Position numbers and translations under genes: made by a program. From a virus: DNA of 47,597 nucleotides. Numbering within the stretch: position 1 is the stretch's first letter; each line of letters begins with the position of its first letter. Location: UHGV virus genome UHGV-1361682, one strand, 5' to 3'. Of this stretch, positions 1 through 47,597 are shown in pieces. The notes beneath the pieces are model-generated. The model searched no databases and was not told where the DNA came from. It worked only from the letters and a program-made list of their open reading frames with translations.

Positions 1-54
1 ACCACCCGGTGTGTGGTCTGTGTGACCACCCGGTGTGTGGTCTGTGTGACCACC
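1..54. repeat. Left inverted terminal repeat: two tandem copies of a 24-mer ACCACCCGGTGTGTGGTCTGTGTG plus ACCACC
   Basis: Bases 1-54 are the exact reverse complement of bases 47544-47597. The internal 24-bp tandem duplication is read directly from the sequence. Confidence 0.9.
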
Positions 55-83
55 AGTGCTTGTCAGCACTACACCAGTGCTTT

Positions 84-270
84 GTGGTGGATACCACCAG
101 CGTCAGGTGGTGGATACCACCAGCGCTGTACCGTGGATACTCCGGGGATACCACCGCCATATGCCCGCGGATACCACCCGCCTATATAAGATATGTCTGA
201 TGCCACTGCACCCGCATGAGGCTGGGGATACGCTGGGATACCACAGGCTTTAGCCCGTGGATACCACACG
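84..270. repeat. Array of about 8 direct copies of GGATACCAC(C), including a 19-bp tandem pair GTGGTGGATACCACCAGCG at 84-102 and 107-125
   Basis: GGATACCAC occurs at 89, 112, 146, 169, 236 and 259, with variants GGATACTCC at 135 and GGATACGCT at 226. The GGTGGATACCACC core is quasi-palindromic. No ORF covers the array. Confidence 0.8.
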
Positions 271-350
271 TGCTTGACCAGCGGGATGCTGTGTCAACAC
301 CCGGGCTGTGGATATGCGGTGTTGTTTAACCATTGTCTACAAAATAGTGC

Positions 351-378: not shown

Positions 379-464
379 GCTCTCCATGGTGATCGATGAC
401 TGACGGGCCACCGGCCCTACGATCACCACACAACACAACACAACACACTTGAAGGAACCACATC

Positions 465-7297: not shown

Positions 7298-8131
7298 ATG
7301 AATAAGACCATCATCGCCCTGACCCTGTCCCTGATCGCCACCGTTGCCAACGCCACCAATACCCCGGGCGCAGACTGCGTCGGCGTCAATGCCTGCAAGA
7401 CCAACTCGGACAACAAGACCTTCAACACCACCAACCAGCCCACGGCTTCTGTCAACGGCGTGCACTCGCAAGCACACAGCGACCAGACCCAAGGCCAGCA
7501 CCAAGGCCAGACGGCCACGGGCGGTTCTGTTGGAAGCTTCGGTGTGAACTCCCACACCAGCCTGGCCACCGGCGGGTACATGTACAACAACAAGTCCCTG
7601 AACATCAACCCTGTCACGGTGCCTGCTGCAGCGATGGTGGCCCCTTCGGCCGAGATCAGCCGTATGGCGGACCCGTACTGCGGTCCTCGCCAGCGCGTGA
7701 TGTCTACGGACGTCCAAGGCCGTGTGATCGGCCTGTTCGTGGACAGCAACGTCAAGCTTGGTGAGAACCAGTGGCTGGCCCCCGACTTCGACATGCCGTA
7801 CCGTCGGGTGGAAGTCATGCCCGGCCTTACCCAACTGATCGGCCACAAGGTGCACGAGACCACCACGGTCTTGACCGTGTCCACGTCAGGTGCCATGGCC
7901 TTCGGTGCCAACGGTAGTTCTGGTCAGGGCGGTTCCATCGGAGGGTCCCACGGAGGTGCCCTGCAGCGTATGGTGACAACGATTCGTGTCCAAGAGTGTG
8001 TGGCCTACGAAATCACGCCCGCTAAGGCCCCTAGCAGGCCCGTGGTGCCTTCCAAACCGAAAGCCAAGGTGGTTGCCCCAACCAGGGTGCAGAAAGCCTC
8101 CAAGGCCCTGAAATGCGATTGTGAGAAGTGA
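7298..8131 (+). CDS. Secreted/periplasmic protein, 277 aa, with an N-terminal signal peptide (MNKTIIALTLSLIATVANA), Gly/Ser/Thr/Gln-rich segments and a basic Pro/Lys-rich tail
   Basis: ORF track. The N-terminus has a basic n-region, a hydrophobic core and an AXA cleavage motif. AAGGAA is 8 nt upstream of the ATG. Confidence 0.6.
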   Translation: MNKTIIALTLSLIATVANATNTPGADCVGVNACKTNSDNKTFNTTNQPTASVNGVHSQAHSDQTQGQHQGQTATGGSVGSFGVNSHTSLATGGYMYNNKSLNINPVTVPAAAMVAPSAEISRMADPYCGPRQRVMSTDVQGRVIGLFVDSNVKLGENQWLAPDFDMPYRRVEVMPGLTQLIGHKVHETTTVLTVSTSGAMAFGANGSSGQGGSIGGSHGGALQRMVTTIRVQECVAYEITPAKAPSRPVVPSKPKAKVVAPTRVQKASKALKCDCEK

Positions 8132-19473: not shown

Positions 19474-19672
19474 TCGCAAGTGGGAAGACATCTTCTACGA
19501 CGAGCTGGCCGTGTGCGCTGAGACTGGCGCAGTCGGGCTCATGAAAGAACGGTACCACAGGCGGAAGCAGGCATTCGCTGAGCTATGGGCCGGGTCCGAC
19601 CACTGGGATGTGGTCAAGGCCAAGCTGGACCGCATCTACCGGGAAGTCAAGCAAGACTACAGGATCGAGTGA
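19457..19672 (+). CDS. Hypothetical protein, 71 aa
   Basis: In frame in track ORF 19271..19672. AAAGAGGA is upstream of ATG 19457. Its stop overlaps the RNAP start (ATGA). Confidence 0.45.
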   Translation: MSASYDRKWEDIFYDELAVCAETGAVGLMKERYHRRKQAFAELWAGSDHWDVVKAKLDRIYREVKQDYRIE

Positions 19673-22152
19673 TGAACTTCGATGAACTGCGAGCAGCAGA
19701 GCGGGTTCGTGAGATTACAACAGACCACGAAGCCCGCACGAAGGCATTGGAGAAGCTCAGCTCCGACATGGATGCAGGCCGGTCGAACTACGGCGCTGCC
19801 CGTGTCTGGCTGGCCGTGCACCACAGCACGGTGCTGGAAGCCCTGAAGGTGGTGTTCCAGGACATTGGCCGACGGGACTGGCGGTACCGTCTGTACGAGC
19901 GTATCGGCCTCTCTGAAGTGGCTGCCATCGCCATGACCACCCTTCTGGAAGTCACCGTCCCCCACGGTGGTAGCCATACCCTGGCTGGGTACCTGGTCAG
20001 GACTGGCCGGAACATCCAGGACGAGGAGAACGTCGGCCTGTACCGCGAAGCGTTCCCACTCGACTTCGAAGACTCTGCAGAGCAGTCCCGTGTCGGTCGG
20101 AACATGGTGATGAAGGATGCCCAGAAGAAGCTGGGCTCGATGCTCTCCAGCCGGTCTTCCAAGGAGCTGGCCCAGCTGGGGTTCTGGTGCTACGTGGCCA
20201 TGGACAGCTGCGGGCTCCTGCGTACCCTGAAATACCCCCGTAAAGCCACGAGAGTGGCCCTTGAAGGCGATGTCCTGCAGTTCCTGGGTGATTACCTCGA
20301 CAGTGATCTGGATCGCGTCTGGAACCGCCAGGAGAGCCGGATGCTGGCGCCGCCTGACCCATGGACGAACAGCATGGACGGTGGTTACCTGACGCCGAAC
20401 CGCAAGGCACAGGCCCCACTGCTGAAGCTCCACAGTGTCCGTAAGAGCCTGCGTGAGGAGTGGGGCCAGAACTGGTCAGCCCAACGGATGCCGAAGGTGT
20501 TCGCTGCAGTGAACTACCTGCAGTCCACTCCCTTCACAATCCATGAGCCCACCAGGAAGGCCATAACGGCCCTCTGGGACGCTGGAGGTGGTACCCTGGG
20601 TGTTCCCCTTACCCGACCCCCGATCGAGCCGCCATGGCCCTGGGAAGGGGCGCAGCGGCCGGATACGGATGAGGCGAATGCGCTGTTCCATGAATGGAAG
20701 GTCAAGAAGGCGAAATGGCACGTCCAACACGCCGAATGGCTGCAGCGTGTTCGTGAGGTAGGCGGACTGATCCAGGCCACCCGGGACATCGGAAAGCCGA
20801 TCTGGTTCCCCATGTACCTTGACTACCGGGGTCGAATGTACTACCGGGGCATCCCCAATCCCCAAGGCACGGACATGGCCAAAGGCGCCATCCACTTCTG
20901 GGAGAAGAAGCCCCTTGGTAAGCGTGGTGTGTATTGGCTGAAGGTGCACATCGCCAACAGCTACGGATACGACAAGGCCCGGAACGATGATCGGGCAAGG
21001 TGGACTGATGAGCACTGGAACGACATTGAACGGGCTCTTGATTGCCCAGCCGATGCTCCCGAAGTTTTCGGGGATGCGCCTTGGCAAATGTTCTCTGCGG
21101 CTTGGGAACTCCGGGAAGCCTACCGCTCCGGAGACCCCGAAAGCTACCTCTGCGGAGTCCCCTGCGGCGGTGATGCCACATGCAGTGGCTTGCAGCACTA
21201 CTCAGCCATACTCCTCGACGAGCACGGGGGGCCTATGGTCAACCTGGACAACGGTGACGGACTTGGGAACAAGGCCGACATCTACACCGGAGTCAGAGAC
21301 TGGGCCGTACGTGCTCTAGAATCCGACTACAGCCCCGTAGAGCGTTCGGACGATGGGACTGGTGTCATCACCCTACCCAGCGGAGAAATCGTCTCTAAAG
21401 ACCTGTACGAGTCTCGTAGGGCCACTGCCACGTGGTGGCTTGGGCGGGACATCACTCGGAGCATGGCGAAGAAGCCTGTGATGACCTACTCATACTCGGC
21501 AACCACCCGATCCGCCGGTGAGCATGTCTTCAACGAGCTGGTCGAGGAGTTCAAGAAGACTGGCGGGCAGTTCCGGATGAAGGGTGAAGGTTTCCGGGAC
21601 AGTCTGTTCCTGGGCCGGTACCTGTTCCGTGGGGTTGAGTCGAAGTTCCCTGGTGCAGCCCGGGCCATGGACTGGCTGAAGGGGCTGGTGAAGTCCTGCG
21701 GGGACAAGCCCACCAGCTGGACCACACCGTCAGGCTTCATGGTCTACCAGGATGTCCGGAAGGACAAAGCGGAGCAGCTCAGGCTGTACGCCAGACAGGA
21801 GCTGTTCAAGGTGGTTGTCCAAGGGGCGGTAGACGAGACCGATCCCCATGGCACGGAGATGGCCATGGCCCCCAACGTCATCCACAGCCTGGATGCCAGC
21901 CACCAGGTGCTGACGATCCACCGGATGATCGAGCAGGGGCTGAGCTTCATGGGCGTCCATGACTGCTTCTATACCCATGCTGGTGACATGGACTACATGC
22001 ACCGGGTACTGCGTGAGGAGTTTGTGGCCATGTACTCGGGCGACTTCCTGCGCCAACTCCGGGACCAGCTGAACCCGGAGTACGAAGACCCTCCGGAGCA
22101 AGGCGGCTTCGATCTTGGCCAAGTCTTGGATTCGGAGTTCTTCTTCTGCTGA
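19672..22152 (+). CDS. Single-subunit DNA-dependent RNA polymerase (T7 gene 1 family), 826 aa
   Basis: Motif A-like DATCSGLQHYSAIL (T7 DGSCSGIQHYSAML), motif B-like RSMAKKPVMTYSYS, motif C VHDCFYTH (T7 IHDSFGT), and C-terminus ...SEFFFC (T7 ...SDFAFA). The track ORF is longer (from 19585), but the start is set at ATG 19672, overlapping the previous stop. Confidence 0.9.
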   Translation: MNFDELRAAERVREITTDHEARTKALEKLSSDMDAGRSNYGAARVWLAVHHSTVLEALKVVFQDIGRRDWRYRLYERIGLSEVAAIAMTTLLEVTVPHGGSHTLAGYLVRTGRNIQDEENVGLYREAFPLDFEDSAEQSRVGRNMVMKDAQKKLGSMLSSRSSKELAQLGFWCYVAMDSCGLLRTLKYPRKATRVALEGDVLQFLGDYLDSDLDRVWNRQESRMLAPPDPWTNSMDGGYLTPNRKAQAPLLKLHSVRKSLREEWGQNWSAQRMPKVFAAVNYLQSTPFTIHEPTRKAITALWDAGGGTLGVPLTRPPIEPPWPWEGAQRPDTDEANALFHEWKVKKAKWHVQHAEWLQRVREVGGLIQATRDIGKPIWFPMYLDYRGRMYYRGIPNPQGTDMAKGAIHFWEKKPLGKRGVYWLKVHIANSYGYDKARNDDRARWTDEHWNDIERALDCPADAPEVFGDAPWQMFSAAWELREAYRSGDPESYLCGVPCGGDATCSGLQHYSAILLDEHGGPMVNLDNGDGLGNKADIYTGVRDWAVRALESDYSPVERSDDGTGVITLPSGEIVSKDLYESRRATATWWLGRDITRSMAKKPVMTYSYSATTRSAGEHVFNELVEEFKKTGGQFRMKGEGFRDSLFLGRYLFRGVESKFPGAARAMDWLKGLVKSCGDKPTSWTTPSGFMVYQDVRKDKAEQLRLYARQELFKVVVQGAVDETDPHGTEMAMAPNVIHSLDASHQVLTIHRMIEQGLSFMGVHDCFYTHAGDMDYMHRVLREEFVAMYSGDFLRQLRDQLNPEYEDPPEQGGFDLGQVLDSEFFFC

Positions 22153-34252: not shown

Positions 34253-37200
34253 TGGCGAAATACTCTGTCCCAATGCCCGGCCGCTTCGGTGGCCTGCCTG
34301 AGATTCCCCAGGAAACCCTTGGCCCTGGCAAGGCATCTGCTCATACCGGTCCGGGCTGGGCAGAGTATGGTGACTACACAGTCCATGTCACTGACAAGTC
34401 CGAGCAGAACATCACCCCTGCTCGGGAGTCCAGAGCCCAGCGTGCCCAGCGCCGCGACGCTCTGGACCACAGCATGTGGGAGTCGTTCCAGGCCGGCCTC
34501 ATGGAGACCATCCCTGCCAAGGTGTTGGCAGCGACGTGGTACGGCCGTCCGGACTTCAAGGACGACACCACAATCAACCATCACACTTACCTGCAGAACA
34601 CCCCCCTGTCCCTGACTGAGGCTGAGCGGGAGTTCTTCATGGACAACGCCCGTGGGCAGAAGTCTGCCGAGTGGGCACTGGAACGAATCAAGGACTGGCG
34701 TCGTGTCCGGGAGACCGAGTCGTCCCACGCCGTGACAGCCTTCGGTGCCTCGATGCTGGACCCGGTGAACGTGGTCCCCGGTGGTGCTGCAGTCAGATAT
34801 GCCGGTGGTATCCGGAATCGCCTGATCGCTGGTGCCGTAACAGGGGCTGCCAACGCAGGGCTGGAATCAGTCATGAGCCCACTGGGTGCCAACCCAGTCG
34901 AGTCTGACGAGGTGCTGTCCGCTGGTATCCTCGGTGGGATCACAGGGATGTTCTACCGTGCCAGGGTACGGCCTGCCAAGGCCACGCCAGACAAGCCGGT
35001 GGATACCCCGGATGCCCCGCAGGCGCCCACCCCCGCAGGAGCCCCCACAAGCCCTTCTACGGCCCTCGCAGCCCCTGGTAAGGCAACCACCCCAGCCCTG
35101 TCCCCAGAGTTCCCTACAGGCCACTCTAGAGGCCCTGTAGCCGGTTTGCTGGAGTCGCCTTCGGGTGACCTGCCCCCATACTACTGGGGGGTCCCTCGGC
35201 TGCCTGCTCCAGAAGTCAAACCAGTGGCCCTGCCTGACCCAAACATCACGCTGAGGCTGGAAGGTCCGGCTACTGGTGTGGTGGGCCGTGCCCAAGTGAT
35301 CCCAATCCGGGAACCTGAGCTGCAGGTAATCGAAGGCCCGGCTCTGCTGGAAGCTCCTCAACGCGATCTGCAGAAGGCCCTGTTCTACGACAAGAACGCT
35401 GATGCTGAGGATGTGTACTTCAAGGATGTTGATCCGAAGACCTCCCCTGTGGTACACCTGACCCAGGATGAGATTGACAGCCTGGGACTCCCCCCGGACA
35501 TCAAAATGCCCGTGGAGAATCCGGAGATCGTCGCCAAGTACCTCAAGGCTTCAGCCAATGACGAGCTTGGTGGGATCAAGTCTGGGGAACCTCTGCGGTT
35601 CGGCAAGCGCAAGGTCGAAGCTGTCAACGCCGAGTCCATAGGGCACCGTGGTGCTGCCAACGACGATGTGGCCGGTAGGCACCTGCACGACACCGCATCC
35701 GCCAACGACGCCGACTTCGGTAACCCGAATCCCTGGGAACACACATCCCACTTCACTGATTCTGCCAACGATGTAGAATACACCCGACCGGCCCTTCCGG
35801 CCCCTGTACGCGCCAAGCTGTTGGAGTACAAGGCAAGAAATTCTTTTGCTGTTAATGAGAATCAATTGCGTTTGGGGTACACGAAGGCTGATGTCGAGTC
35901 GATCGAAGCCCAGAAGCACCCACGCAACGCCGAGAAGCGCATAGCTGCTGCTGCCCACAAGGCTGCTGTAGAGGCACGGAAGAAGGCCACTGCTGAAGCC
36001 CGTGCTGCTGCTCGGGAACAGCGTGAGGCCCACCAGGCTGCTCTGAAGGCTGCCAATGAGGCCACGCGAGCTGCCAAGGCTGCTGAGGCGAAGGCCAAAG
36101 CTGCCGAAGCCAAAGCCAAGCTTCAGGCTGAGCGTGCTGCTAAGCGTGCTGAGGCCAAGGCTGCTGCTGCCCAGCGCAAGGCTGATCAGGCTGTCTTCAA
36201 GGCCAAGCAGGCACAAGCTGCTCAGAAAGCCTCTCAGAAGGCTTCAAACGGGCCTACAACGGCTTCAGTGAGTCAGGGTAGTACAACCCCTTCGGGGATG
36301 TCTCCGAACGATCCTGCGGTCCAACAGGCGGCTCAGCACACTGCTTCCCAGCAGGCCGCTGCAGCTGGTGGGGGGTCTGGTAAGCCTCCGACACAGCCCC
36401 CGGCTGGCCAGTCGGCTGCTGCCCAGCCCCCGAGTCCTCCCCCAGGACCGAACGCCACCCTGGCACAAATCCTGCAGGGCAGTGGGCCGAACACCCTTGG
36501 GCACATCCCCGACCACGTCGGCAAGACGGTCGCGTCGAAGCTGGCCTGGAACATGCACAAGACAATGTCGAGCTGGGGAAAAGCCGGGCAGCTGGTCGCT
36601 GACCTGCTGTACGATGATGTGCTCAGCCCGGGCAAGGTGTCTGTGGAGTCCGAGCGTGCAGCGGCACTGGCCCAGCTGAGGCAACACCAGCACAAGTTCA
36701 CGGACATGTTCCGTGAGCGGATGAAGCAGGATGGCTGGGGTACATGGGAGCAGATGACACAAGGCCGTGGGTACTACAATGCCCAGCGCAAGCTGGAGCA
36801 AGACCTGTACGCCGAGATGGCTGCGCGGCAGAATGCCACCGCCACTGGCGCGCCTCATGTCAGCACCCGGCCTGATCTGAAGGAGCTGGCTGACCAGCTG
36901 GACCTTATCCACCGCGAGGCCCTGGATGAGCTGAAGCGTGCTGGTGTCGAGAACGCTGCTGATCTGAAGGAGTCCTCTGGCTACCTGTCCCGCAAGTGGG
37001 ACATGTACGGGATGGAGCAGACCATTCAGCGTCTGGACGGTATGGGACTGGATGGGAAGCAAGCTGTGGCTGATATGCTGCAGAAGTCGATCCTGGCCAG
37101 GACACCGCTGCTGCCCGCTGACGTTGCGATGGAGATGGCCAAAGCCATCCGGGACCGTACGCTCCGGAAGGGCTACTTCGAGGACAACATCGGGCAGGGA

Positions 37201-43643: not shown

Positions 43644-43943
43644 ATGGAAGCATCCCTGCAGCAGCAGCTGCAGGATGCCCTCTGGAAAGTAGCCGAGCTG
43701 CAGGTCAAGTCCTTTCAGGACCGCCTGCAGCAGGATATGGCAGATGGCATCCCGACAGACGCTGCAACCCTCACAGCAATCACTTCTGCCCTGAAGCTCC
43801 ACGGAGTGCACCTGGGTGCTTCCCAGCCGGCTGTCGAAGACCCCGTATCGGATGTCCGCGGACAGCTGGATGAGCTGAAGGCCAGACTGGCACAGCGCAG
43901 ACAGTCCCTCACCGCTGAGACCGTGTCAAGGGTTCTGCAATGA
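43644..43943 (+). CDS. Terminase small subunit candidate, 99 aa
   Basis: AGGAG RBS is present. It is a small coiled-coil-like protein immediately upstream of, and overlapping (ATGA), the large terminase, as in phiKMV-like phages. Confidence 0.55.
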   Translation: MEASLQQQLQDALWKVAELQVKSFQDRLQQDMADGIPTDAATLTAITSALKLHGVHLGASQPAVEDPVSDVRGQLDELKARLAQRRQSLTAETVSRVLQ

Positions 43944-45709
43944 TTCGTTCTGAAGAAGAACGTCTGAGGATTGCCTTGGAGACATCCGAGGCATTCCCGG
44001 AGTTCCTGGACTTCGCATGGCTTGCTGCCGAGAAGTACATCCCCGGCTTCCATGTCATGTCTGCTGTGCAGGAGGACATGTGCCGGTACCTACAGTATGG
44101 CCCACAGAAGCGCATGCTTCAGGCCCAGCGTGGTGAAGGCAAGTCGTACATCACGGCATTCTATGTCGTGTGGAGACTGATCCAAGACCCGAAGGAGATC
44201 ATCCTGGTGATGTCCGCGGGTAAGGAGCTGGCTGAGCAGATGTCCCACCTGCTTACCCAGATGATCATGAGCTGGGACATCCTCGAATACATGGCCCCGT
44301 CGGCCAACGACGGTGACCGTACTGGGGTGAAGTCCTTCGACATCCACCGGATGCTGAAGGGTCTTAACAAGTCCCCCTCCATCTCTATCGTGTCATCCCG
44401 CACAGCTCTGCCTGGCCGTCGTGCCTCTGTGGTGCTGGCTGATGACGTGGAGTCGGATGAGAACGCCCTCACGGCTGCAACCCGTGAGAAGCTGTTGAAC
44501 AAGTGCCGTGAGCTGTCCCGCATCTGTACCCATGGGGATGTGATCTTCCTGGGCACGCCACAGACCAAGGACTCGATCTACAACTCCCTGGAGCGGATGG
44601 GGTACGATGTCCGTGTGTGGCCTGGTCGTTACCCTGCCCAGGGTGAGGACATCTACGGGTACAAGCTGGCCCCGATGATCCGCGAAGCCATGGACGCCGA
44701 TCCCAGTCTCCGGACAGGTGGTGGGATGTCTGGGCGGATGGGCAAGCCTACAGACCCGACTCGGTACACCGAGCAGGAGCTGCAGGACAAGGAGCTGGCA
44801 GATGGCCCAGAGCAGTTCGCTCTGAACTACCTGCTGGACACCAGCCTGTCGGATGAGATCCGTCTGCAGCTGAAGGTCCGTGATCTGATCGTTGGTGCCT
44901 ACCCCACAGACCATGTGCCGGATCAGCTGATCTGGAACAGGGACAACCAGAACCGTGTGCCTCTCGATCCGCTCTTCCCCCTGGTGGGGGTGGAGCTGTA
45001 CTACGGCATCCGGACTGGGGAGCGTTTCGAAGTGCCAAGCACCGTGTGGTGCACCATTGACCCATCGGGTGAGGGGGCTGACGAAACGGCCCTTACAGCC
45101 GCGTGTGCCGTGGGTGACAACATCCATATCCTCGGCATCGATGCGTTCCGTGGTGGGCTTTCTGAGGCCAACCAGGACCGTTTCCTGGGCTTCTTCAGGA
45201 AGTACAAGGTGACACACATCCGTGTGGAGTCCAACATGGGGCATGGCCTGTTCGAGCTTGGGCTCAGGAACCTGCTGAAAGGTACTGACCTGGCCCACCT
45301 GGCCAGCTGTGTCTCAGGTGACTACAGCACTGGTCAGAAGGAGCGTCGGATCATCAACACTATCCGGCCTGTCCTGGAACGGCACCGCCTCGTGATCCAT
45401 GAGGATGTGCTGAAGCAGGATGCCCAGTGCTGTATGGCATACGGTGTGGGTGAGCGAGCAAGCTTCAGCCTGTTCCACCAGATGTCGAACATCACCACAG
45501 ATAGAGAATCTCTATCCCACGATGACAGGCTGGACTCGCTGGCTATGGCTGTGCAGCTACTGGCCCCCGCCATCATGACAGACCCTCAAAAGCTTGCCGA
45601 AGAGCGGGAAGCGCAACAATGGAAGGAGTGGGTAGACTCCCTATTCAACCCCAAATGGAAAGACAAAGCACATTCTGGACTTGGTGGTCCTACACCGTGG
45701 GATCGATAA
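43940..45709 (+). CDS. Terminase large subunit, 589 aa (Walker A-like QRGEGKSY; nuclease domain)
   Basis: Size and the P-loop-like motif match the T7 gp19 family. Position is at the right end of the structural module. Confidence 0.8.
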   Translation: MIRSEEERLRIALETSEAFPEFLDFAWLAAEKYIPGFHVMSAVQEDMCRYLQYGPQKRMLQAQRGEGKSYITAFYVVWRLIQDPKEIILVMSAGKELAEQMSHLLTQMIMSWDILEYMAPSANDGDRTGVKSFDIHRMLKGLNKSPSISIVSSRTALPGRRASVVLADDVESDENALTAATREKLLNKCRELSRICTHGDVIFLGTPQTKDSIYNSLERMGYDVRVWPGRYPAQGEDIYGYKLAPMIREAMDADPSLRTGGGMSGRMGKPTDPTRYTEQELQDKELADGPEQFALNYLLDTSLSDEIRLQLKVRDLIVGAYPTDHVPDQLIWNRDNQNRVPLDPLFPLVGVELYYGIRTGERFEVPSTVWCTIDPSGEGADETALTAACAVGDNIHILGIDAFRGGLSEANQDRFLGFFRKYKVTHIRVESNMGHGLFELGLRNLLKGTDLAHLASCVSGDYSTGQKERRIINTIRPVLERHRLVIHEDVLKQDAQCCMAYGVGERASFSLFHQMSNITTDRESLSHDDRLDSLAMAVQLLAPAIMTDPQKLAEEREAQQWKEWVDSLFNPKWKDKAHSGLGGPTPWDR

Positions 45710-46283: not shown

Positions 46284-46428
46284 AGGGCCTCCTGACGCGC
46301 CTGAGGGGGATCCTTGGGGATCTGCTCTGCAGTTCCTGCTGTGGGGGAATGAACAAGCGCTTGCCAGGGAGCTGTGCAGGCTGGAGATACAAAGGAGTCT
46401 AGATGGACCTGGGAACGCTGCCAAGTGA
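46126..46428 (+). CDS. Rz1-like outer-membrane lipoprotein spanin (o-spanin), 100 aa. It starts inside Rz in the +1 frame and extends beyond it (overlapped architecture).
   Basis: Lipoprotein-type signal MLRRPKYGRLLLVLALLIMPGC, then a Pro-rich mature region (PPPVCLERPEGPPDAPEGDP). A strong RBS, GAAGGAGAAG, is upstream. Confidence 0.55.
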   Translation: MLRRPKYGRLLLVLALLIMPGCSVLQKRPVEPSGASQSLGKVVPPPVCLERPEGPPDAPEGDPWGSALQFLLWGNEQALARELCRLEIQRSLDGPGNAAK

Positions 46429-47542
46429 TGACCCAAAGTACAAGAAGCGTGTGGGTAAGGGCTGGGTACAGATGCACGGCCTGTACAACCTTCGGATCGG
46501 AGCATCTGGGAACCAGGTGGCTGTACGGTTCCGGTCTGAGCTGACTGGGAACCTGCAGGCCATTGGGTTCTATGCCCAGTCGGGTAGTGGGTATGCCCTG
46601 GGGAATGGTGGGAGTGCCACCATCACGCTGAGGGGAGACGCTGGTGGGAAGCTGGGTACCATCCTGGGGACCAGCAACCACAGCTTCAAAGATGATGGAC
46701 ACTCAGCAGCGTCTGGGAAGGCCATCCAGACCCGTGTGAACCTGACTGGCCACATGATTGCTGGCCGGCACTACTGGGTGGTCTTCGAGAATGGGGACCC
46801 GGGGAACTACACGAGCTTCAACAATGCAGGCCTTCGGAAGGACATGGGATCCCAGCCTCATGTCTGGCAAGACCCTAACGACTGGTCTGTTTGGTACGGC
46901 CCGCTGAACAACCTCCAGAATTACAGCACTGGTGCGCATCCACAGCTGAAGGCTTACCCCATCCTGGCCCTGCACACCGATAAGGGCACCTTCGGGTACA
47001 CACCCATTGAGGGTGGTGCTGTGCAGAGGAATACCACCCGGAAGGGACCGCTGACATGCTACGAGGGGAAGAAGATCGCTCAGGTCTTCCACAACGTCAT
47101 GGGACAGCTGGAGGGGCTCTCCGTGGCCCTGGGACCGTCTGTTCAGGATCAGGTGTTCCGGATCACCATCAAGGGCGTCAACACCGTAGGCATGGAAGTC
47201 ACCTGCCTGTGGAAGGAACCACAGGAGCGTGAAGCCCTGACCACGAACTACTACGCCAGGGTCTACCCATGGTGGCACTGGTTCATGCCGTCCGCTGTCT
47301 TCGCCTCTGGGGATGTGACTGTCACCATCGAGTCTGATCAGATGTTTGGGTGCAACCCCATCCGCTGGGGTGGTCCATTCCAGTATGGTGGGAAGCCTGT
47401 CTACACCGCTGATGGGCAGGACACAGGCTATGCCATAGCCCTGATGCCCAATGGACAGTTCCTGCCTATCAACCACAATGCATGGCAGAGCAATGGGTCC
47501 AACAAGGAGTCTCAGTGGCCCATGACGCTTCACCTACGGTAA
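46403..47542 (+). CDS. Hypothetical protein, 379 aa, last gene of the genome (Gly/Asn/Trp-rich; function unknown; could be a structural, receptor-binding or lysis-associated protein)
   Basis: ORF track. AAAGGAG RBS is 5 nt upstream. It ends 2 nt before the right ITR. Confidence 0.55.
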   Translation: MDLGTLPSDDPKYKKRVGKGWVQMHGLYNLRIGASGNQVAVRFRSELTGNLQAIGFYAQSGSGYALGNGGSATITLRGDAGGKLGTILGTSNHSFKDDGHSAASGKAIQTRVNLTGHMIAGRHYWVVFENGDPGNYTSFNNAGLRKDMGSQPHVWQDPNDWSVWYGPLNNLQNYSTGAHPQLKAYPILALHTDKGTFGYTPIEGGAVQRNTTRKGPLTCYEGKKIAQVFHNVMGQLEGLSVALGPSVQDQVFRITIKGVNTVGMEVTCLWKEPQEREALTTNYYARVYPWWHWFMPSAVFASGDVTVTIESDQMFGCNPIRWGGPFQYGGKPVYTADGQDTGYAIALMPNGQFLPINHNAWQSNGSNKESQWPMTLHLR

Positions 47543-47543
47543 T

Positions 47544-47597
47544 GGTGGTCACACAGACCACACACCGGGTGGTCACACAGACCACACACCGGGTGGT
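47544..47597. repeat. Right inverted terminal repeat (reverse complement of 1-54)
   Basis: GGTGGTCACACAGACCACACACCGGGT x2 + GGT is the exact reverse complement of the left end. It begins 2 nt after the stop codon of the last gene. Confidence 0.9.

Follow-up and report, generated by a model that had tools for sequence, protein, structure and literature searches.

The SRL and SRR arrays of short repeats have been known in T7 since its genome was sequenced, and to our knowledge their function was never established. Word counts over the first 1 kb recover eleven copies of CCTAAAG in T7, all on one strand, of which three lie in the 160-bp terminal repeat and eight at 175-340, followed by the promoters phiOL (405) and A1 (498); more copies of the same word are found just before the right-hand repeat. 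The corresponding counts yield CCTAAAG and CTTAAAG in T3 and 13 copies of CTTAGT, partly in a 12-bp phase, in SP6, while phiKMV carries CTCCCTGG, CCTGGCT and TGGTCCTG at 470-800, between its 414-bp repeat and the promoters that begin at 897. Each of these four phages possesses its own one-strand motif in the region running from the terminal repeat to the early promoters, so that the analogy with the T7 short repeats, which the initial annotation of the present locus had drawn, holds and describes a general property of the group.

Two further kinds of system invite comparison. The lambda cosB R sites, SPP1 pacL/pacR and the P1 pac hexamers are short phased repeats at a comparable location in the concatemer junction, lying by the cutting site and cooperatively bound by a small DNA-binding subunit; we know of no T7-type small terminase subunit that reads such repeats. 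The iterons of plasmid and lambda origins and centromere repeats such as R1 parC, on the other hand, are direct repeats with a phase of ~11 or 22-23 bp adjoined by an AT-rich stretch, and are bound cooperatively on one helix face; one polarity combined with a 23-bp phase is typical of iterons.

A one-strand 9-mer array in the left leader

The window, i.e., the whole 47,597-bp stretch of DNA that was analysed, is an incomplete contig of a podophage that by its gene content is phiKMV-type (Autographivirales). Its long reading frames are all on the + strand, and profile searches of its proteins matched portal, capsid and tail tube B, together with a single-subunit RNA polymerase (19585-22152; phrog_414, E 3e-176) encoded just before the structural genes. 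It further encodes a small terminase subunit (43644-43943, phrog_891), a T7-type large terminase (43940-45709) and a DNA polymerase of family A, alongside a primase and a DnaB-like helicase. The best GenBank matches of the RNA polymerase are to phiKMV-like phages of Burkholderiales and Pseudomonas, at 35-43% identity, and nucleotide searches of GenBank phages for near as well as distant matches, run with the leftmost 6 kb, the leftmost 1.2 kb and the junction segment, were negative. Exact protein matches come from human oral metagenomes (ENA PRJEB6997 and others, and JGI sample 3300045988), the JGI sample being the source of the only close relatives found in IMG/VR. The relevant features of the window are as follows, in order of position.

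1-55, no strand assigned: left end of the window, 2.3 copies of the 24-bp unit ACCACCCGGTGTGTGGTCTGTGTG; reverse complement of 47543-47597
53-83, + strand: 1.5 copies of the 21-bp unit CCAGTGCTTGTCAGCACTACA, of which a relative has three copies
84-102 and 107-125, + strand: the 19-bp pair GTGGTGGATACCACCAGCG, containing sites 1 and 2
89-97 and 112-120, + strand: sites 1 and 2, exact copies, fully palindromic GGTGG-ATA-CCACC
135-143, + strand: site 3, variant GGATACTCC
146-154, + strand: site 4, exact copy
169-177, + strand: site 5, exact copy
181-199, + strand: AT-rich block CCTATATAAGATATGTCTG, between array 1 and array 2
226-234, 236-244 and 259-267, + strand: array 2, comprising site 6 (variant GGATACGCT), site 7 (exact) and site 8 (exact)
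307-315, + strand: TGTGGATAT, with a GGATA core; on the - strand it matches a DnaA box at 8/9 positions
325-338, + strand: TTTAACCATTGTCT, invariant in relatives; 13/14 identical to T7 nt 370-383
351-378, + strand: first early sigma-70-type promoter, TTGACA, 16 nt, TACAAT; 11/12 match
465-785, + strand: first early gene, 106 aa, no family match; marker of the leftmost early module
804-831, + strand: second promoter, of identical score
1050-1223, + strand: very basic early protein of 57 aa with 12 K+R; speculative candidate ligand
46403-47542, + strand: last gene, its stop codon directly before 47543
47543-47597, no strand assigned: 1-55 repeated in inverted form at the right end, immediately past the last gene's stop codon

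A pattern search of the window places exact copies of GGATACCAC on the + strand at 89, 112, 146, 169, 236 and 259, and the two variants, at 135 and 226, retain GGATAC. The eight sites that the initial annotation had counted in ~190 bp as copies or variants of a quasi-palindromic motif are thereby borne out as six exact copies and two variants, and all eight motif sites in 89-267 are on the + strand. From base composition, ~0.21 exact copies are expected on the + strand of the whole window and ~0.16 on the - strand (~0.4 in total), and the window has just one further exact copy, which lies within a gene, on the - strand at 34805; a Poisson estimate for at least six exact copies within 187 bp is ~5e-22. 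The 19-bp pair had been described as tandem: the pair is present, but with 23 bp from one start to the next it is not tandem in the strict sense. From site 2 to site 5 the start-to-start spacings are 23, 11 and 23 bp.

The absence of coding potential in the array, also noted at the outset, agrees with its location upstream of the first sigma-70-type promoter and with insertions and deletions in relatives that are not multiples of 3. No Rfam family was matched in 1-1500, and a structured nucleic acid was rejected on the basis of the single-strand folding of 80-275, which is weakly better than that of shuffled sequences (z -2.25). An array of phage promoters was likewise rejected, as the rest of the genome makes no use of the motif and a search for repeated promoter-like words came up empty. 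In the literature on the 9-mer the motif is mentioned inside primers only, and nothing specific was found on the 9-mer and the T7 arrays.

Set against the systems described above, the array is very probably, by its sequence and setting, of the SRL/SRR type, i.e., the lineage-specific counterpart of the T7 arrays. As in T7, the carrier is a podophage with a single-subunit RNA polymerase and all its genes on one strand, and the repeats occupy a non-coding leader that follows an end block with a C-run/G-run palindrome (see below) and precedes the first strong host promoters. As in T7, T3, SP6 and phiKMV, the copies lie on one strand and comprise ~8-13 occurrences of a 6-9-bp core among unrelated spacers, with a regular phase of 13 bp in T7, 12 bp in SP6 and ~11.5 bp here. 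Unlike the motifs of the T7 arrays, the present one is unrelated to them, longer (9-11 bp) and quasi-palindromic. The array is real, conserved and constrained, and presents a fresh example of a feature known in T7-like phages.

Constraint on the motif and its surroundings

A frequency matrix built from 64 sites, drawn from 11 junction regions in this phage and related ones, has the consensus G(T/g)GGATACCAC(C/a), i.e., GTGG-ATA-CCAC, in keeping with the earlier description as a quasi-palindrome, and the flanks beyond +/-2 nt carry zero information. The centre of all 64 sites is ATA and never TAT, which gives the near-palindrome a direction. In pairwise comparisons of the six exact copies in the window the 9-mer is 100% identical, whereas the flanks are 31-38% identical as against 25% for random sequence; an identical 9-mer within near-random flanks indicates that the copies are not recent duplicates and that the core is maintained. 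Judging from these alignments, the 9-mer is kept by selection while the spacers and the copy number drift. Across all strains, neighbouring sites are spaced by 10-12 bp (15 cases), 20-24 bp (22), 34-35 bp (4) or 55-57 bp (2), and these classes are multiples of ~11.5 bp. Such phasing is as would be expected of proteins that bind cooperatively and follow one side of the helix or wind around it in a shallow spiral.

This pattern bears on the view that the array has no sequence-specific function and is either a by-product of slippage or unequal crossing-over in a spacer of which only the length matters, or acts through DNA shape alone. Such a view would sit well with a leader full of variable-number tandem repeats and with the wholesale replacement of the motif between close relatives (see below). 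However, decaying tandem duplicates would lose core and spacer alike, whereas here the 9-mer is intact in six copies with near-random flanks and conserved across diverged strains, a contrast that contradicts neutral slippage; the strict strand polarity and the 11.5-bp phasing also point to constraint. An array devoid of sequence-specific function is, on this evidence, quite improbable.

The order of the elements in the leader is kept in every relative that possesses the first early gene, down to 73-78% amino acid identity of its product (gp1), and the search for the motif in related phages, which had been suggested as a check, found the 9-mer and its clusters kept over the same range. The leader of these relatives begins with the end block and its palindrome, followed by a variable tandem repeat (24-mer, 21-mer or GT-rich, depending on the strain); the stretch at 53-83 belongs to this variable zone between the end block and the array. 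Array 1, with two to five sites mostly 23 bp apart, comes next and is succeeded by a nearly invariant block, CCCGCCTATATAAGATATG; the AT-rich block at 181-199 differs by at most one or two substitutions in close relatives with sequence extending that far. Some strains have another variable-number tandem repeat at this point. Array 2 has three sites, which are 10-11 bp apart in most relatives and 10 and 23 bp apart in the window, and ends in GGATACCACACGTGC or a close variant, site 8 and its ACGTGC being kept as GGATACCA(C/a) in all relatives but L053, which has GGATACTCT. The leader is completed by the block TGTGGATATGC...TTTAACCATTGTCT, whose second part has the same relative position as the matching T7 nt 370-383, and by the first promoter, TTGACA-16-TACAAT. 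The leader tandem repeats (24-mers, 21-mers, 20-mers) differ in copy number between samples, and the tandem repeats and spacers around the motif are replaced between relatives, whereas the motif and its two clusters are kept. A scan of IMG/VR for two phased copies returned 50 loci, those outside this clade being tandem repeats within coding sequence, their periods divisible by 3, and a scan of bacterial genomes for three phased copies returned 24-bp-period repeats in unrelated MAGs only.

The above layout could also be read as a replication origin of the iteron type, in which the repeats would bind an initiator and the AT-rich stretch at 181-199 would melt, as in plasmid and lambda origins or in the secondary origins of T7, which lie near the end promoters phiOL and phiOR. 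The direct repeats of one polarity in a 23-bp phase, the nearly invariant AT-rich block between the two clusters, the near-consensus DnaA box at 307-315 and the presence of arrays on both sides of the end block in its inverted copy (see below) are all consistent with such an origin. However, the conserved core extends over only 9-11 bp and the AT-rich block over only ~13-19 bp, there is a single DnaA-like box, and none of the early genes was recognised as initiator-like. Further, replication in T7-type phages starts from RNA-polymerase transcripts and dispenses with an initiator protein. The difference from iterons and parC thus lies in a 9-bp core, in the lack of a recognised initiator or partition gene and in the lytic, T7-like nature of the phage, and we regard an origin of this type as unlikely.

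Contig ends, inverted end module and predicted left terminus

The initial annotation had placed the array immediately inside a left terminal repeat, an assignment that has to be given up. The ends of the window form a perfect 55-bp inverted, not direct, repeat starting with ACCACC, and a MEGAHIT contig of the same phage assembled at k=127 (47,741 bp, with 0 mismatches over the first 6 kb) ends in a perfect inverted repeat of exactly 127 bp. As the length of the end repeat tracks the assembler k, the contig stops at an internal inverted repeat and there is no physical terminal repeat at this point; the 55 bp represent the margin of a larger inverted repeat, truncated at the k-mer length of the assembler.

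Independent assemblies extend the right 'end' by 1.4 kb. ENA scaffold_92 and a JGI contig, which have an identical last gene, continue beyond the right end of the window, first through inverted 24-bp repeats with an N gap, next through the reverse complement of the 72 nt left of position 1 in the k=127 contig, then through ~500 bp of non-coding DNA with more repeats and ~seven GGTATCC(AC) sites, and then through an endolysin gene (PF00959), before stopping after another 33 nt, in which the stretch immediately 5' of the endolysin gene recurs as its reverse complement. Three more strains have an identical layout beyond the last gene. One strain has a left leader whose first 186 nt, including array 1, match the reverse complement of the DNA directly after the last gene at 99.5% identity, and close relatives have a mirror-image array directly 3' of the last gene, with motif polarity mirror-symmetric on either side of the endolysin segment. 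The earlier remark that the right end has no equivalent array is correct within the window but does not extend to the other assemblies, which add the ~seven inverted copies of the motif.

These data also decide against taking the window for a complete linear genome with true terminal repeats, or for a protein-primed genome with inverted ones. The perfect 55-bp inverted repeat is superficially like the ends of protein-primed genomes. However, its length equals the assembler k (55 vs 127), other assemblies read through the right end, the window has a holin and an Rz-like spanin yet no endolysin, and the polymerase is of family A and the terminase T7-like, so that a complete genome of either description can be given almost no credence. 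The protein-primed type (phi29, PRD1, adenovirus) was rejected in its own right, given the artefactual nature of the inverted repeat and a family A polymerase accompanied by a primase and a DnaB-like helicase. A scan of IMG/VR for the 24-bp terminal unit gave zero matches. For genome scans more generally, an exact 55- or 127-bp inverted repeat at the contig ends is to be taken as a warning, being an assembler signature rather than a genome terminus, and contigs that end in this way can miss genes, as the endolysin was missed here.

The simplest map consists of the main body (the window), an inverted repeat R', the endolysin, R and the main body again, with an R of ~0.7 kb, of which the left copy is seen at both ends and presumed in the middle. 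A metagenome scan for the 3' end of the endolysin found one more assembly, which breaks ~60 nt past the gene, so that no contig was found to cross from the endolysin into the left leader. In T7 the motif is also present beyond the end block; here, motif clusters beyond the end block are seen in the inverted copy only (L121, 7568-7890), and from their occurrence on both sides of the block in that copy, together with the two visible ends of the inverted repeat, we infer, rather than directly see, that they are present in direct orientation in the left copy as well. In two relatives with other array motifs, NODE_99 and L156, the endolysin is in its usual place after the terminase and such an inverted repeat is absent, which indicates that the inverted endolysin arrangement is derived in this clade; the partial duplication of the module in inverted form around a relocated endolysin gene distinguishes it from T7 as well as from L156 and NODE_99. 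This duplication is in itself more unusual than the array.

The location of the physical terminus can be predicted by comparison with phages whose left end is established by position. A TTCCCCC-RTR-GGG palindrome lies 24 nt from the physical left terminus in T7, 24 nt in phiKMV and 22 nt in RSB3, and T3 and SP6 have similar C-run elements near their left termini. The matching palindrome, TTCCCCCCGTGGGGGGG, of the form TTCCCCCC-GTG-GGGGGG, lies just left of the window and is preceded by TCGACATCCAGGCGTCAT, an RSB3-like TCGAC...GGCG block similar to the terminus of RSB3, TCCGACCCCAAGGCGCTCGCA, and to the corresponding block in L156. By this resemblance, the left terminus of the DNA would fall ~69 bp before position 1, at or near TCGACATCCAGG. 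The array would then occupy nt 153-339 from the predicted end, as compared with 175-340 for the T7 array; its description as flanking the terminal repeat derives from homology to these other phages.

Replacement of the motif between relatives and candidate readers

The late proteins of NODE_99 are 75-89% identical to those of the window, with 86% for the tailspike, and it has the same palindrome. However, GGATACCAC is absent from it, and instead there is a TGCCCGT array after the palindrome and ~30 copies of GGTAC in the leader. L156, which has an uninterrupted junction, bears GATAG/CTATAGG arrays. The motifs of these two phages are 10- to 90-fold enriched over the rest of the respective genome and are strand-biased. 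The array motif is lineage-specific, differing by phage at the same place.

This replacement is pertinent to the question of whether the sites serve a host factor, either as Chi-like stops against RecBCD-type nucleases entering from DNA ends or as a cluster of weak DnaA boxes. Sites 1 and 2 carry CCACCAGC, the reverse complement of E. coli Chi, oriented for an enzyme entering from the left, and the L133 clade retains CCACCAGC just before its array. The mirror-symmetric polarity around the endolysin segment would be compatible with this, as would the motif copies preceded by TGT, which read TGTGGATAC and match a DnaA box at 8/9 positions. However, CCACCAGC is found in only 2/8 sites, and the invariant part, GGATACCAC, is neither Chi nor a DnaA box; further, the T7, T3 and SP6 arrays are not Chi, and no such arrays were found in the bacterial genomes scanned. 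A tailspike 86% identical to that of the window suggests that the host of NODE_99 is probably the same or close, and the use of quite different motifs by phages with nearly the same tailspike makes a host protein such as Chi-reading enzymes or DnaA an unlikely reader. Chi as the conserved element was accordingly rejected on its 2/8 occurrence and on the difference in motif at 86% tailspike identity, and a DnaA-box cluster on the single box at 307-315; a host factor as a whole appears very improbable. The initial annotation had also offered the alternative that a phage protein or a host protein binds the sites: protein binding is compatible with the spacing of the 9-mer and with its strict conservation, and of the two a host protein is unlikely, given a motif that differs at similar tailspike.

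Of the phage proteins, the terminase would be the reader by analogy with the pac and cos repeats. The large subunit of the window is 75% identical to that of NODE_99 and the small subunit 81% overall, with residues 1-59 being 100% identical. As NODE_99 has unrelated arrays, this part of the small subunit is unlikely to be the reader, and the resemblance to the pac/cos repeats breaks down where an identical N-terminal 59 residues accompany completely different arrays. The array sequence fails to co-vary with subunit residues 1-59, contrary to what recognition repeats for the DNA-binding part of a small terminase (pac/cos-type) would show. If the terminase reads the arrays at all, the large subunit or the C-terminal part of the small subunit would be the possible reader.

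A second source of phage proteins is the leftmost early module, which, as marked by the first early gene, is invariably found together with the GGATACCAC arrays. Homologues of the first early gene, a 38-aa gene, the 57-aa basic protein and others are absent from NODE_99, which makes a ligand encoded in that module possible. The gene lists read for motif-bearing relatives all include the 57-aa protein, and a homologue of it is lacking from the first 18 kb of NODE_99. On this basis, the sites might be an operator array for a protein of the adjacent early module, e.g., the 57-aa one, and might act in the shut-off or tuning of the early promoters, or in protecting or organising the DNA that enters first. 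The change of the motif together with the leftmost early genes, while the late genes and the tailspike stay 75-89% identical, is consistent with this proposal, as is the position of array 2 and the GGATA block at 307-315, 35-125 bp upstream of the first promoter, and the distribution of the small, very basic protein, for which two helices are predicted. However, the co-variation may be mere adjacency, i.e., linkage of neighbouring DNA, and many copies of the motif lie far from the early promoters, after the last late gene and around the endolysin, which makes a role purely in promoter control unlikely. Additionally, neither Pfam nor PHROGs matched any of the early proteins to a DNA-binding family, and the AlphaFold2 single-sequence model of the 57-aa protein, with a disordered N-terminus and then two helices, is of low confidence (pLDDT 69). 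An operator array serving the early module is on the whole unlikely.

We therefore return to the SRL/SRR-type reading, under which the array would consist of phased protein-binding sites for recognition of the concatemer junction, an explanation that, taken whole and argued from the analogy with T7, we place a little short of an even chance. The 9-bp sites, situated in the non-coding leader between the predicted genome end and the first host-type early promoters, would be bound cooperatively by a phage-specified protein, which would cover the DNA flanking the terminal-repeat core on either side, along one of its faces or in a shallow spiral. The resulting complex would direct the recognition and processing of the concatemer junction and so provide packaging specificity. 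As the mechanism within this explanation we tentatively favour sites that mark both flanks of the terminal repeat for junction processing, which seems possible though somewhat doubtful. The conserved end block TCGACATCCAGGCGTCAT-TTCCCCCCGTGGGGGGG would be a likelier cutting or terminase site than the array. In T3/T7 hybrids, according to the summary in PMC3276506 (citing Yamagishi 1985), packaging specificity maps to gp19 and to DNA less than 5% from the termini.

A bolder version combines the junction with the early module, such that the arrays would be operators of a small phage DNA-binding protein encoded in the same exchangeable left-end cassette, for which the 57-aa basic early protein may be a candidate, and would confer a lineage-specific identity on the junction. 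Under this version, array and reader would be swapped together between otherwise near-identical phages, and the terminal repeat would be flanked on either side by a phased protein-DNA filament, from which each T7-like lineage would derive its concatemer-junction identity. Such a cassette is decidedly unlikely; if true, it would show what the SRL/SRR arrays of T7 bind and what they are for.

Arrays of short motifs by the terminal repeats are a recurrent T7-type feature, and the natural variation in this clade could make their function testable: near-identical late regions are combined with three array motifs, and the N-terminus of the small terminase is identical across two motif types while the early modules differ. 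That the array motif is exchanged outright between near-identical phages is, as an observation in its own right, more unusual than the array itself.

Conserved elements of the left end and early leader

The 14-mer TTTAACCATTGTCT at window positions 325-338 is invariant in all three of the close relatives checked (L124, L133 and L141), and it is identical at 13 of 14 positions to TTTAATCATTGTCT at nt 370-383 of T7 (L146). The T7 sequence also occupies the same relative position, being situated 3' of the short-repeat array and directly 5' of the first promoters. Matches at 12 and 11 of the 14 positions were recovered, respectively, in L156 (4377-4390), a relative with another array motif, and in phiKMV, and no match was found in T3, SP6, RSB3 or NODE_99, a further relative with a different array motif.

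Closer to the terminus, T7, phiKMV and RSB3 share a TTCCCCC-RTR-GGG palindrome whose distance from the physical left end is fixed at 22-24 nt, and the oral clade has this element too. It is possible that this palindrome constitutes a general landmark by which the termini of T7-like phages might be predicted in metagenomic contigs.

Positions of the TTCCCCC-RTR-GGG palindrome
T7: 24-38
phiKMV: 24-35
RSB3: 22-33
Oral clade, contig L124: 1-40, immediately left of window position 1

Downstream, in the first gene's 5' leader (window 404-447), there is a GC hairpin, GGGCCACCGGCCC, at 405-417, and a CAACA repeat in four copies at 428-447; the relative L051 is without the hairpin. By analogy with the RNase III site located 5' of gene 0.3 in T7, this element may function in RNA processing or stability.

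Separately, variable-number tandem repeats were observed in the leader of the window (1-83) and in those of the relatives L133-L140, the units being 24 and 21 bp long in the former and 21 and 20 bp long in the L133 clade. Samples differ in the number of copies, and assembly breaks fall at these repeats.

An endolysin gene between probable inverted repeats

A holin and a spanin are both present in the window and no endolysin was found within it. The clade's endolysin gene (PF00959), whose product has a signal-anchor-like N-terminus, has moved out of the lysis cassette and is bounded on both sides by inferred inverted repeats of ~0.7 kb, both of which include the putative left-end block with its palindrome. 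Possibly the segment between the repeats is invertible; alternatively, it could supply two end-recognition sites in opposite orientation.

Location of the endolysin segment in contigs of the clade
Window: 47543-47597 and beyond
L121: 7141-8587
L054, L056 and L152: right parts

Terminase divergence, a mobile early gene and Chi octamers

Comparison of the small terminase subunit (window 43644-43943) with that of a relative (L131, 7827-8123) reveals complete identity over residues 1-59, as against ~50% over the C-terminal 40 residues, with the large subunits of the two phages being 75% identical. This pattern in the sequences suggests that the C-terminal part has co-evolved with the large subunit in a modular fashion.

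The 277-aa early protein (window 7298-8131) has homologues, 75-83% identical, in a second, very abundant group of contigs (~38-39 kb; >80 clusters), which is probably also from the oral cavity. That group differs in gene content, with a DEAD helicase and a PD-(D/E)XK nuclease among its genes, and the gene for the 277-aa protein is thus one that is exchanged between separate groups of phages.

With the array set aside, six copies of the E. coli-type Chi octamer GCTGGTGG lie on the + strand and a single copy on the - strand, where ~1.2 would be expected per strand; the + strand excess may stem from codon usage or may be a true bias in orientation.

Chi octamers outside the array
+ strand: 10504, 30208, 36364, 41665, 43576, 46640
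Minus (-) strand: 21710
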